A DNA stretch of 64,000 nt, taken from the NCBI RefSeq assembly GCF_029227855.1, contig NZ_CP074356.1; one strand, 5' to 3'. Origin of the DNA: Escherichia coli. GTDB taxonomy: Bacteria > Pseudomonadota > Gammaproteobacteria > Enterobacterales > Enterobacteriaceae. The translations under genes and the position numbers were made by a program. The notes beneath the pieces were generated by a model. It saw nothing but the letters and a program-made list of their open reading frames with translations, was not told where the DNA came from and ran no database searches. Positions 15,812-18,214 of the stretch are shown piece by piece; the stretch's first letter is position 1; every line of letters starts with the position of its first letter.

Positions 15812-18214
15812 TTATTGATTATCGTTAAAGTCAATAATTTCTTTCAATATTTTTTTTTCTTCATCCCAGTTATGAGGATAAAACCCCACAGATTTGCTAT
15901 TATTGAAGTAATGCTCTGAAGTATTGTTTTTTTGTTCTCCAATAGTAAAGCCAAATATATTTTTTTTTGGTATTTTGCCTATGTTTTTATAAATCCAATA
16001 TAATATACATAAGCCAGCAGATGGGGAGTGTTTGATTTTTTCGATTAATTCATAATATATTGTCGGAGGTATTATTGAAAAGGGAATATTTAAAACATCA
16101 AAATCAAGAATGAAGTCCTCAAAAGAGCTATTCCTGAATAAAGGGTTTATACCTGACTGAATTACAAGTTCAAATTGTCCATTGTAACGCCTGTCTATAT
16201 CTTGATAGTATCCAGATTTCACCCACACTGTTGTTTTTGTACCATAATCAACACTATACTCATGATCTAAATTATAGTTGTTGAATCTAATTACAATATC
16301 GAAACTATCAATAATAGACCCATTTTTGCTCCCTATCTCAACAGGCCCATTTCCAACAACCGCAAAGTTTTTATCTCTTTTTATTTTATCAATGAAATCA
16401 GCTTGTGCTTTATATATGGATTCTATTTTTTGAAACTTTTCATTGTTATTGTTTCTTCGGCTATCAATTATTGCCTCTAATAAATAATACTTTTTCAGGT
16501 TTGAGAACTCCTTTTGATGTAAGTCATACAATGATAAAGCTTTTGAATAGAAACCAGCTTCACAGTAACAAGCGCATATAAATAATTTCGCTTGTTGGCT
16601 GATTTTTTCTATATCAAGGAATAGAATGTTTAAATGATGTAATAACTCTCTTGTAATCCCTGATGTCTCCCAAAGATATTCACATAAAAAATATCTTGCC
16701 TGATGATAGGTTGGATCATTATCGATAATTTCCATTAAGTTATCTTTTATGCTTTTATCATATCTTCCTGATTGTTTATAATATTTGCAATATAAAAGTT
16801 TAATCTCTTTATTCGAAGGATGTTTCTTTATTGCATTACGGAGAAAATCAACTAACTCAAAGTAATTATTGTTTTTTCTCAATAAGGCTATATATATTTT
16901 TATGGAATTTAATTCCCATGGGTTTTGTTTCCATATGCTTCTTGCTATTTTATTATATTCAGGGGTTACACCATACGCTATTTTTTTAGTAAACTCTGTA
17001 TATGTTAAAGATATTGATGTTTTTTTTGTGTTAGAAGTAGTAGAGGTTTTTTTTACTAATTTTTCATCCTTTGTCAAACAATCACTAGTATGATTTAATT
17101 CTTTAAGATTTATTTCTTTTATTTCTTGTTCCTTGATGGATTTTTTTGCGGAAATAATTTCGTCAATTATCTTTTCTATGGATACGATCTTACCTTCTTT
17201 AAGTGAAAAATATGTGGGGTATAAAATATAAGCGCAAAAGAAAACCTCTTCTATACTTCGTTTAATATTTCTATTTCTAATAAGCCCTCTATCATCGGTT
17301 AGCCCCCAACCTGCATAAAAAGGAGTGCCAAATGTTGTAACTTTTTTTCCTCTTAATAAGGCTTCAAACCCAGTCAATGATGTGATTGTATACACATGAT
17401 CAATGTTATCTAGCAACCAACAAAGGTCAATATTTTTATCATCTAGAATATGACAAATTGAATTGCTTTTCTCTGGATTTGAAATATTTTTTCTTAATCC
17501 GTTATTAACATCTGGATGAGGTCGATAAATAATCATTGCGCCAGGGTTTTCAGCTATGGCTTTATGGAGTAAGAGTTTATTATTGATACCGTGGCTAGCC
17601 CCATATTTGATAGATTGGTCTTCCTCTACTTGACCAATTACCAATACCTTTTTTTTATTTTTGGGCAAGTTTTTTATTATCGTTGTGCCGGTGATGTTAT
17701 ATTTTGAAATCTTGTTTGTTTTTATTTTGTTTATGATTCTTCTTGCTTTTTCAACTTCATATGGATTTACTCTATAGGTTGTGATAAGTTTTTCTAGTCG
17801 GGATTCTTCTTGTGCATTATAATAAATGCTGCAATCATCAAAGCATAATGACATTGGCAGTATATGTTCTGCCCCTAGACCAATTGAACGTATAAATCCA
17901 TCCTCTACCCTAACTATTTTTAGATTCTTTAATTCTTTAATATATGGAGGTATTTCTGCGCCCCAGTTATATATTGTTTTGATATTGCTCCTTTCTATTC
18001 TTTTCAACACTTTTGTTTTGTCAGAATTATACCCAAAATAATAAACATCCGTATTCCCTATATATTTTTCAAAAACATCTCGTTTCCATGTAGAGATACC
18101 AAATGCTATACACGCTTTTCCTCGACAGTTAATGACCTTATTTCTTTGCGTGTTCAGATGTGCATCATGGAAAAAAATTTTTGGGTTTTTTATTAATTTT
18201 AAAATCTTGGTCAT
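15812..18214 (-). CDS. multidomain putative capsule polymerase: N-terminal KpsC-like beta-Kdo transferase module, TPR-like central region, C-terminal sialyltransferase-like (GT29-type) domain
   Basis: 800 aa. The N-terminal third is similar to the KpsC modules in this same window (RVEDGFIRSIGLG vs [44 protein letters not shown] vs [31 protein letters not shown]). The C-terminus carries AVVGNGP...IDSFDIVIRFN...YGTKTT, PSAGLCILYW...IFGF and HYF motifs. Confidence 0.7.
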   Translation of the reverse strand: MTKILKLIKNPKIFFHDAHLNTQRNKVINCRGKACIAFGISTWKRDVFEKYIGNTDVYYFGYNSDKTKVLKRIERSNIKTIYNWGAEIPPYIKELKNLKIVRVEDGFIRSIGLGAEHILPMSLCFDDCSIYYNAQEESRLEKLITTYRVNPYEVEKARRIINKIKTNKISKYNITGTTIIKNLPKNKKKVLVIGQVEEDQSIKYGASHGINNKLLLHKAIAENPGAMIIYRPHPDVNNGLRKNISNPEKSNSICHILDDKNIDLCWLLDNIDHVYTITSLTGFEALLRGKKVTTFGTPFYAGWGLTDDRGLIRNRNIKRSIEEVFFCAYILYPTYFSLKEGKIVSIEKIIDEIISAKKSIKEQEIKEINLKELNHTSDCLTKDEKLVKKTSTTSNTKKTSISLTYTEFTKKIAYGVTPEYNKIARSIWKQNPWELNSIKIYIALLRKNNNYFELVDFLRNAIKKHPSNKEIKLLYCKYYKQSGRYDKSIKDNLMEIIDNDPTYHQARYFLCEYLWETSGITRELLHHLNILFLDIEKISQQAKLFICACYCEAGFYSKALSLYDLHQKEFSNLKKYYLLEAIIDSRRNNNNEKFQKIESIYKAQADFIDKIKRDKNFAVVGNGPVEIGSKNGSIIDSFDIVIRFNNYNLDHEYSVDYGTKTTVWVKSGYYQDIDRRYNGQFELVIQSGINPLFRNSSFEDFILDFDVLNIPFSIIPPTIYYELIEKIKHSPSAGLCILYWIYKNIGKIPKKNIFGFTIGEQKNNTSEHYFNNSKSVGFYPHNWDEEKKILKEIIDFNDNQ

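Follow-up and report, generated by a model that had tools for sequence, protein, structure and literature searches.

We analysed a 64,000-nucleotide stretch of Escherichia coli DNA from contig NZ_CP074356.1 (hereafter, the window) and focused on one gene of the kps capsule locus that it carries, an open reading frame (ORF) at positions 15812-18214 on the minus strand that encodes a protein of 800 amino acids (aa) catalogued as K126_10. We propose that K126_10 is a cytoplasmic, bifunctional, serotype-specific glycosyltransferase of the K126 (group 2A) locus, and we put the probability of this reading, together with the whole pathway set out below, at about 0.6. [quoted passage not shown] Its C-terminal domain has the fold of the GT29 sialyltransferases, and between the two lie a flexible linker and an all-helical region that resembles tetratricopeptide repeats (TPRs). 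The parts of the protein are as follows.

15812-18214, minus strand: whole ORF, 800 aa, K126_10 (ORF listing, RefSeq, MD5 checksum)
17105-18127, minus strand: GT107 (KpsC-type) beta-Kdo transferase module, aa ~30-370 (Pfam, KpsC structures, residue mapping, dbCAN)
17015-17092, minus strand: flexible linker, aa 375-400 (predicted local distance difference test, pLDDT, <50 in the full-length AlphaFold model)
16373-17002, minus strand: all-helical TPR-like repeat of 12 helices, aa ~405-614 (model; weak Pfam TPR_19/TPR_20 matches)
15815-16372, minus strand: GT29-like domain (sialyltransferase fold, a GT-A variant), aa ~615-800

The gene and its identity with K126_10

The ORF is uninterrupted and starts with ATG, and the opposite strand over 15812-18214 has no ORF of 100 aa or more. 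Its start lies 6 nt past the stop codon of the 652 aa ORF ahead of it, and galE follows 11 nt after its end; these short spacings place the gene inside an operon. RefSeq annotates a coding sequence with identical coordinates (WP_072617365.1, "glycosyltransferase family 29 protein"), so the ORF that an earlier note on this DNA had singled out is real. Among 5426 complete E. coli genomes, megablast detects it in four, on the chromosome and with 99.9-100% identity, and the RefSeq annotation holds for these four. Residue mapping also located in the protein every motif that had been quoted for it. The KpsC-like motifs are EDGF (104-107), SKYN (170-173), HPDV (233-236), GFEALL (282-287) and a ten-residue motif (299-308). 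Motif L comprises AVVGNGP (618-624), IDSFDIVIRFN (635-645) and DYGTKTT (656-662), motif S comprises PSAGL (731-735) and NIFGF (752-756), and the motif III/VS region comprises HYFNN (768-772) and HNWDEE (781-786).

The kTYPr catalogue describes 85 transporter-dependent E. coli K-types (Nat Microbiol 2026; PMC13171606). The MD5 checksums of the proteins from ORFs 18221-20179, 15812-18214 and 14772-15800 equal those of K126_9, K126_10 and K126_11 in its Supplementary Table 3. The identity of three proteins assigns the window to K-type K126, group 2A, whose reference record is NZ_CP074356.1 and whose 16,092 bp reference interval fits the segment from kpsF to an acetyltransferase gene (window ~14101-30192). 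For K126_10, the catalogue's InterProScan results list the CDD model beta_Kdo_transferase_KpsC_2 (80-335), PF05159 (96-332), a TPR region (428-564, called also by SUPERFAMILY and Gene3D), a Gene3D GT29-like domain (565-800) and PF00777 (588-665). Its dbCAN result is GT107(23-378) + GT0, which means that the C-terminal domain is not a member of CAZy GT29 (PMC13171606).

K126 does not appear in the main text of the catalogue paper, but its authors do discuss K6_8 as a dual GT29-GT107 ulosonic-acid transferase that fits a poly-Kdo product (PMC13171606). K6_8 (781 aa) comes from another K-type, K6, the neighbour of K126 in the catalogue, and, like K126_10, has a GT107 module, a C-terminal GT29-like domain, and GT4 and GalE neighbours; K6_7, K6_8 and K6_9 are 41%, 36.6% and 59% identical to K126_9, K126_10 and K126_11. 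For the K6 cluster, MALDI-MS (mass spectrometry with matrix-assisted laser desorption/ionization) gave species consistent with poly-Kdo, with the structure treated as provisional (PMC13171606). The Kdo of K6 is listed as alpha-pyranose (PMC12887879), the anomer expected when an inverting enzyme uses CMP-beta-Kdo (CMP, cytidine monophosphate). K126_10 and its domains are already catalogued, and the dual-enzyme hypothesis is already in print for its K6 homologue. What our comparison adds is the size and bacterial nature of the GT29-like family, its recurrent fusions to GT107 and GT4, Kdo-only loci, the TPR-GT29 unit, and an invariant His and Glu. These additions strengthen the published hypothesis and do not create a new one, and the value of K126_10 is that of a well-defined biochemical target, not of a discovery.

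The N-terminal GT107 module

Pfam Capsule_synth (PF05159) matches aa 96-332 at E 1.1e-37, and a phmmer search of the PDB retrieves KpsC structures, led by 6mgd (E 2.6e-57 over 287 residues) and 6mgc (E 1e-45) and reaching down to E 9e-43. By BLASTP, the module is 34% identical to each of the two modules of the window's own KpsC (E 2e-54 and 2e-47), slightly closer to the C-terminal one (178 vs 159 bits). The roles of the KpsC catalytic residues have been defined (PMC10148158), and we mapped them onto K126_10 through an alignment to 6mgd. The whole set is conserved: Glu104 (base), Tyr131, Lys171, Tyr172, Gln195-x3-Asp199 (Asp199 being the nucleophile) and His233-Pro234 align with Glu70, Tyr97, Lys137, Tyr138, Gln161, Asp165 and the HP motif of T. 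dismutans KpsC-C. Judged by every testable feature of family membership, all of them read from sequence, the N-terminal module is a genuine member of GT107, and the KpsC-likeness pointed out in the earlier note extends to all catalytic residues. K126_10 differs from KpsC in having one GT107 module and not two, in being encoded in the serotype-specific region and not in region 1, and in its fusion to TPR-like and GT29-like parts.

The linker and the TPR-like region

In the full-length AlphaFold model (pLDDT 85; predicted template modelling score, pTM, 0.52), the GT107 module spans residues ~30-370, the linker 375-400, the helices 405-614 and the GT29-like domain 617-795. The helices run straight on into the GT29-like domain. 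A TPR-like region between the modules had been suggested before; the Pfam match alone is weak (E 0.059), and the model displays a 12-helix repeat. The same kind of region also precedes GT29-like domains in stand-alone homologues. In other multi-enzyme capsule polymerases, TPR domains are functional parts (PMC11666461), and K126_10 shares their architecture: two transferase modules and a TPR-like region, encoded in the serotype-specific region of an ATP-binding cassette (ABC)-transporter capsule locus. The likeness to Cps3D/Cps7D of A. pleuropneumoniae lies in the combination, on one chain, of two transferase modules and a TPR domain for a capsule of the ABC-transporter type (PMC11666461). The catalytic modules themselves are unrelated in sequence, those of Cps3D/Cps7D being a TagF-like and a GT-B galactosyltransferase module that make teichoic-acid-like polymers.

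The C-terminal GT29-like domain

The landmarks of this domain are motif L (618-662), motif S (731-756), motif III (His768-Tyr769) and motif VS (His781 to Glu786). A phmmer search of the PDB with the single full-length protein reached GT29 only at E 0.11, and a family profile was therefore required. The profile of the bacterial family aligns with pig ST3Gal-I along the entire domain (E 6e-16) and brings motifs L, S, III (HY[FW]) and VS (H-x4-E) into register, in agreement with the sialyltransferase motifs that had been read from the single sequence. Gly621, Asn622, Ile635, Arg643, Gly658, Gly734, His781 and Glu786 are invariant in a 38-sequence alignment (A1), and His781 and Glu786 are at least 90% conserved in a second alignment (A2). 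In animal GT29 enzymes, as in ST3Gal-I, the His of motif III and the His of motif VS have catalytic roles.

An AlphaFold model of the domain built on the 38-sequence alignment (pLDDT 91, pTM 0.90) gave 30 significant Foldseek matches in the PDB, all of them GT29 sialyltransferases at probability 1.00. The domain thus has the GT-A variant fold of the sialyltransferases; the earlier note had let its assignment hang on such a structural match, and the matches are exclusively of this kind. A search with GT29 sequence models, which it had also called for, bore the assignment out in part. Pfam Glyco_transf_29 (PF00777) matches aa 586-665 at E 1.6e-10, and a weak second piece covers aa 752-794 (E 0.035). 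Coverage is limited to positions 26-104 and 221-268 of the 272 in the model, and dbCAN, as published, does not call GT29.

Animal GT29 enzymes also have a conserved cysteine pair that links motifs L and S. In K126_10, Phe617 replaces the Cys before AVVGN, and the S-motif Cys of ST3Gal-I has no counterpart in the alignment. The domain is 17-21% identical to the animal enzymes ST3Gal-I, ST6GalNAc2, ST6Gal1 and ST8SiaIII and is shorter (~185 aa against ~270 aa for the animal catalytic domain). Unlike them, it is cytoplasmic and lacks a signal anchor and the cysteine pair, it lies outside dbCAN GT29, and its likely donor is Kdo and not sialic acid. The most fitting description is that of a bacterial sister group to GT29.

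The same departures from the animal enzymes could be taken to mean that the domain is a catalytically dead scaffold or a carbohydrate- or CMP-binding module, with GT107 alone active: the Pfam model is covered in two fragments, dbCAN gives no GT29 and the Cys-Cys pair is absent. We regard this as highly improbable, since the CMP-binding L and S motifs and His768-Tyr769 are conserved, and so are His781 and Glu786 to the degree given above. The domain is, moreover, confidently folded in the model and exists as a stand-alone protein of ~190 aa.

A GT42-like assignment, raised by a GNGPS motif as in Cst-II, was rejected: GT42 scores lie well below those of GT29, and the family is absent from the significant Foldseek matches. 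The same holds for Campylobacter Cst-I/Cst-II (GT42) and the Maf flagellin glycosyltransferases, which are clearly weaker matches than GT29 and fall outside the significant set.

Distribution and architectures of the family

When aa 570-800 served as the query of an exhaustive phmmer search, 1313 clusters matched at E <= 1e-3, 554 of them at E <= 1e-10; this HMMER search replaced a word-indexed one that had returned nine relatives and missed the query. The best AFDB50 match is the same 800 aa protein in Escherichia marmotae. Of the other 49 AFDB50 matches listed, not one is eukaryotic; each either names a bacterium as its source or gives no organism, and among the genera named are Pseudomonas, Sinorhizobium, Sphingobium, Helicobacter, Cupriavidus, Leucothrix and Microbacterium. 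Many of these proteins are fused to beta-Kdo-transferase or pyruvyl-transferase domains. Bacterial GT29-like proteins had already been described in 2018 (PMC5811610). The family therefore appears to be large and bacterial, and the earlier description of the domain as eukaryotic-type, from a fold largely of eukaryotes and viruses, does not hold: against it stand the 1313 clusters, together with the sampled genomic contexts and the named AFDB50 matches, all bacterial.

Local phmmer comparison of the query modules with 158 fetched relatives showed the GT29-like domain alone in 110, many of which have an N-terminal helical region. A recognisable TPR-GT29 arrangement is present in 12 of the 158. 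About 30 combine one to four GT107 modules with the GT29-like domain, in either order, up to an 1851 aa protein of the form 4xGT107-TPR-GT29, and five are GT4-GT29 fusions. On these counts, the TPR and GT29-like parts are the evolutionary unit, and its fusion to GT107 is recurrent.

Genomic context and the donor sugar

Annotation of the window confirms that neu genes are absent from the capsule locus and that kpsU is present, as the earlier note had said, and kpsF is there too. We sampled nine genomic contexts of family members. The closest homologue, 51% identical overall, lies in another kps locus of enterobacterial type (L002) within the same cassette (kpsM, kpsT, GT4, fusion gene, epimerase, acetyltransferase), so that the six-gene cassette recurs without neu genes. 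In L003, the 4xGT107-TPR-GT29 protein is the sole glycosyltransferase besides KpsS and KpsC. The sugar-nucleotide genes of that locus are limited to a KdsA-like synthase, a KdsB-KdsC fusion whose cytidylyltransferase is 66% identical to the window's KpsU, and a KdsD-like isomerase. A 2xGT107-TPR-GT29 protein occurs with kdsB, kdsA, kdsD and kdsC (L004). In Ignatzschineria (L005), a TPR-GT29 protein without GT107 is accompanied by kdsD, kdsA, an acetyltransferase gene and a homologue of the 650 aa GT4, and in Aeromonas (L007) a GT4-GT29 fusion is accompanied by kdsD, kdsA and kdsB. The NeuB and NeuC Pfam families are absent from these five loci, L002, L003, L004, L005 and L007. In the five related loci from other bacteria, the CMP-Kdo genes are the only recurring sugar-nucleotide genes. 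Since the window has no neu genes and CMP-Kdo genes recur in related loci, Kdo is most likely the donor of the GT29-like domain, as far as gene content can indicate.

Alternatively, the domain would be a true sialyltransferase or another nonulosonic-acid transferase, supplied with CMP-N-acetylneuraminic acid (CMP-Neu5Ac), CMP-legionaminic acid or CMP-pseudaminic acid by genes elsewhere, or with scavenged sialic acid. Its best structural matches are indeed sialyltransferases, one distant family member has a GT42 CST-I gene and one for a cytidylyltransferase next to it, and pathways for nonulosonic acids are encoded in some O-antigen clusters of E. coli. We nevertheless consider this alternative unlikely: the window has no neu genes, the cassette travels between hosts unaccompanied by such genes, kds-type pathway genes are found in the five related kps loci, and the plant members of GT29 demonstrate a use of the fold beyond sialic acid. 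Among these, Arabidopsis RCKT1 has been implicated by genetic evidence as a CMP-beta-Kdo transferase of the inverting type (PMC11288761). RCKT1/MGP2 resembles the proposed K126_10 domain in having a GT29 fold in an organism without sialic acid and a putative conversion of CMP-beta-Kdo to alpha-Kdo, in its case in rhamnogalacturonan II (RG-II). It differs in being a eukaryotic Golgi enzyme that acts on pectin, and we liken the two by description (PMC11288761).

Several other features of the sampled loci were observed. The four-GT107 protein of L003 (1851 aa; four GT107, TPR and GT29-like parts; 10001-15556) is accompanied by three to four hexapeptide acyltransferase genes and a gene for a beta-helix protein, and L003 is a candidate locus for a heavily O-acylated, Kdo-only capsule. 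In L004, a 1171 aa KpsC-like protein (double GT107, TPR and GT29-like; 9400-12915) is followed by two further genes, one for a pyruvyl transferase and one for an additional single Capsule_synth protein. The L004 stretch showed no separate KpsC of full length; primer synthesis and polymerisation may therefore share one chain there.

The more distant members stand in other surroundings. In L010 (8001-12126; 26.5% GC), two tandem GT29-like genes lie by a cytidylyltransferase gene, a GT42 CST-I family gene and a GT8 gene. This resembles a lipooligosaccharide-type locus, and the family may use sialic acid there and not Kdo. In L009 (8001-8585), a stand-alone GT29-like protein of 194 aa is encoded between two ~1000 aa Ig-like repeat proteins, among small unannotated genes at 61% GC, a context that may be phage or secretion related. 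L006 (850-6507) encodes a 1106 aa GT107-GT29-GT29 protein followed by an HMGL-like gene (aldolase/synthase superfamily) and a CTP_transf_3 cytidylyltransferase gene; these might form a pathway to a different CMP-activated keto-acid sugar.

Proposed mechanism

The results above show the domain architecture, the folds, the conserved catalytic residues, the operon context and the identity with K126_10. For the donor sugar, the linkage and its anomeric outcome, the order of action, the role as a polymerase and the structure of the polymer, we infer the following pathway. By homology to KpsC, the GT107 module would be a retaining beta-Kdo transferase that works by double displacement: Asp199 would attack CMP-beta-Kdo to form a covalent Kdo-enzyme adduct, His233 would protonate the phosphate of the departing CMP, and Glu104 would activate the acceptor hydroxyl. 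The flexible linker would lead to the TPR-like scaffold, which would be structurally continuous with the second catalytic domain. This GT29-like domain would be an inverting, metal-independent CMP-ulosonic-acid transferase with His781 as the catalytic base and His768 in contact with the phosphate; with CMP-beta-Kdo, its likeliest donor, it would form alpha-Kdo linkages. The neighbouring GT4 enzyme, K126_9, probably uses UDP-galactose (UDP, uridine diphosphate) or UDP-N-acetylgalactosamine supplied through GalE. K126_10, K126_9 and the O-acetyltransferase would together build a Kdo-rich polymer on the poly-Kdo lipid primer made by KpsS and KpsC, and KpsMTED would export the product.

This proposal has to be weighed against several points that tell the other way. 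The sequence and the model of the GT29-like domain fit Kdo, Neu5Ac or other nonulosonic acids alike as donor. The absence of annotated neuA, neuB and neuC applies to the 64 kb window, the rest of the host genome not having been searched for neuB, legI or pseI. Distant family members occur in non-kps contexts, including the one beside the GT42 CST-I gene, so donor specificity may vary within the family. At a pTM of 0.52, the geometry between modules in the full-length model is not reliable. If the K6 polymer is pure poly-Kdo, the conserved GT4 and GalE lack an explained role. Finally, a GT4 and a GT29-like domain occur without a fused GT107 in Ignatzschineria and Aeromonas, which suggests that the GT107 module may sit outside the repeating-unit machinery.

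This last point leads to another reading, in which K126_9 and the GT29-like domain make the repeat unit of a hexose-Kdo heteropolymer and GT107 only primes. GT107 would then act as a transition transferase, extending the KpsC-made linker by one or a few beta-Kdo residues so that the acceptor is in place; ABC-transporter capsules offer precedents for such enzymes (PMC11666461). The Ignatzschineria pair of a ~650 aa GT4 and a TPR-GT29 protein without GT107, the single-chain GT4-GT29 fusions in Aeromonas and in E. coli K111_9, and the conservation of GalE in the cassette all favour such a division of labour. In particular, the recurrence of the K126_9-type GT4 with Kdo transferases, plus GalE, argues for a polymer of hexose and Kdo. 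On the other hand, L003 and L004 combine multiple GT107 modules with a GT29-like domain in the absence of GT4, which suggests a role of GT107 in polymerisation. The Kdo-only MALDI series of K6, obtained despite a homologous GT4 and GalE, also argues against a hexose-plus-Kdo polymer (PMC13171606). We therefore rate a merely priming GT107 as the less probable reading, although a good deal more probable than a sialic acid donor, and keep the bifunctional Kdo transferase as the preferred one.

In its boldest form, the preferred reading holds that one chain would carry both a retaining CMP-Kdo transferase (through an Asp-Kdo adduct) and an inverting one, that the capsule would contain both beta- and alpha-Kdo, and that the C-terminal domains would constitute a new CAZy family of capsule alpha-Kdo transferases. 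We advance this stronger version tentatively, at slightly under even odds. More than half of the E. coli group 2 capsules contain Kdo (PMC12887879), and alpha-Kdo linkages require an inverting enzyme (PMC13171606). The capsule Kdo transferases characterised so far are retaining beta-Kdo enzymes only (GT99, GT107, GT140). If our reading is correct, a CMP-Kdo-using domain of the sialyltransferase fold would fill this gap, and the inverting Kdo transferases still missing from the picture of group 2 capsules would be those of the bacterial GT29-like clade. Such a domain would also offer a new glyco-engineering tool for Kdo-containing vaccine antigens and a parallel to the putative plant RG-II Kdo transferase. 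The bacterial clade might, in addition, stand near the ancestor from which the eukaryotic GT29 enzymes descend.

The capsule locus and neighbouring genes

The kps locus is bounded by pheV-tRNA/yqgA and by the gsp type II secretion genes, and the remainder of the window consists of housekeeping genes. The order on the minus strand is kpsF-E-D-U-C-S, a 320 nt AT-rich spacer, ops, kpsM (21059-21838), kpsT, the GT4 gene, the 800 aa gene and galE; a hexapeptide acetyltransferase gene convergent with galE closes it. The neighbouring features are as follows.

22248-30192, minus strand: region 1, kpsF-E-D-U-C-S (RefSeq; NCBIfam match for KpsS)
21870-21877, minus strand: ops element GGCGGTAG(CGT), ~32 nt upstream of kpsM (pattern search, sequence read)
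20373-21838, minus strand: kpsT and kpsM, ABC exporter, low GC (RefSeq, NCBIfam, GC profile)
18221-20179, minus strand: K126_9, a 652 aa GT4-family glycosyltransferase (MD5; NCBIfam and PDB GT4 matches)
14772-15800, minus strand: GalE, UDP-glucose 4-epimerase, K126_11 (TIGR01179, E 2e-131; MD5)
14102-14683, plus strand: hexapeptide-repeat O-acetyltransferase (NCBIfam WbbJ/LacA-type matches)

In region 1, KpsF and KpsU serve the supply of CMP-Kdo, and KpsS and KpsC make the poly-Kdo lipid primer. The sequence GGCGGTAGCGT at 21870-21877 on the minus strand is a canonical ops/JUMPStart element ahead of kpsM. The kpsMT genes come right after kpsS, co-directional with region 1 and upstream of the serotype-specific genes, and do not flank the locus on the gsp side. 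The segment ~13000-22000 has ~30% G+C against 50-57% in the flanks, and the whole kpsM-to-galE unit is low in GC.

The GT4 matches of K126_9 (NCBIfam, PDB) are confined to aa ~160-315. Its C-terminal half (aa 314-652; window 18221-19240, minus strand) has no Pfam match even at E <= 10 and no PDB sequence match with a 21-member family profile, and its length is kept across the homologues from Aeromonas, Vibrio and Ignatzschineria. These three genera and Paraglaciecola have full-length relatives, and a second class has the same GT4 fused to a Capsule_synth domain. At other loci, the K126_9-type GT4 is adjacent to, or fused with, GT29-like domains. It is a conserved partner of the GT29-like domain and repeatedly teams with Kdo transferases.

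The O-acetyltransferase is 64% identical to the product of a co-directional gene in the homologous cassette of L002. Between its gene and gspM/yghD lies an AT-rich stretch of 965 bp (13137-14101) with ORFs of at most 67 aa and no RefSeq annotation; the idea that this gap beside gspM is a relic of kpsMT was rejected, as it holds short, unannotated ORFs only. The full length of the stretch is ~91% identical in 12 other E. coli genomes, and part of it is found at 80-90% in 36 more. At the opposite, pheV-proximal edge of the capsule island, a remnant of an IS110 transposase gene (~31000-31200; IS, insertion sequence) lies between the pheV tRNA gene and kpsF. An intact IS200C tnpA (~41330-41790) is located in the housekeeping flank, beside ansB.

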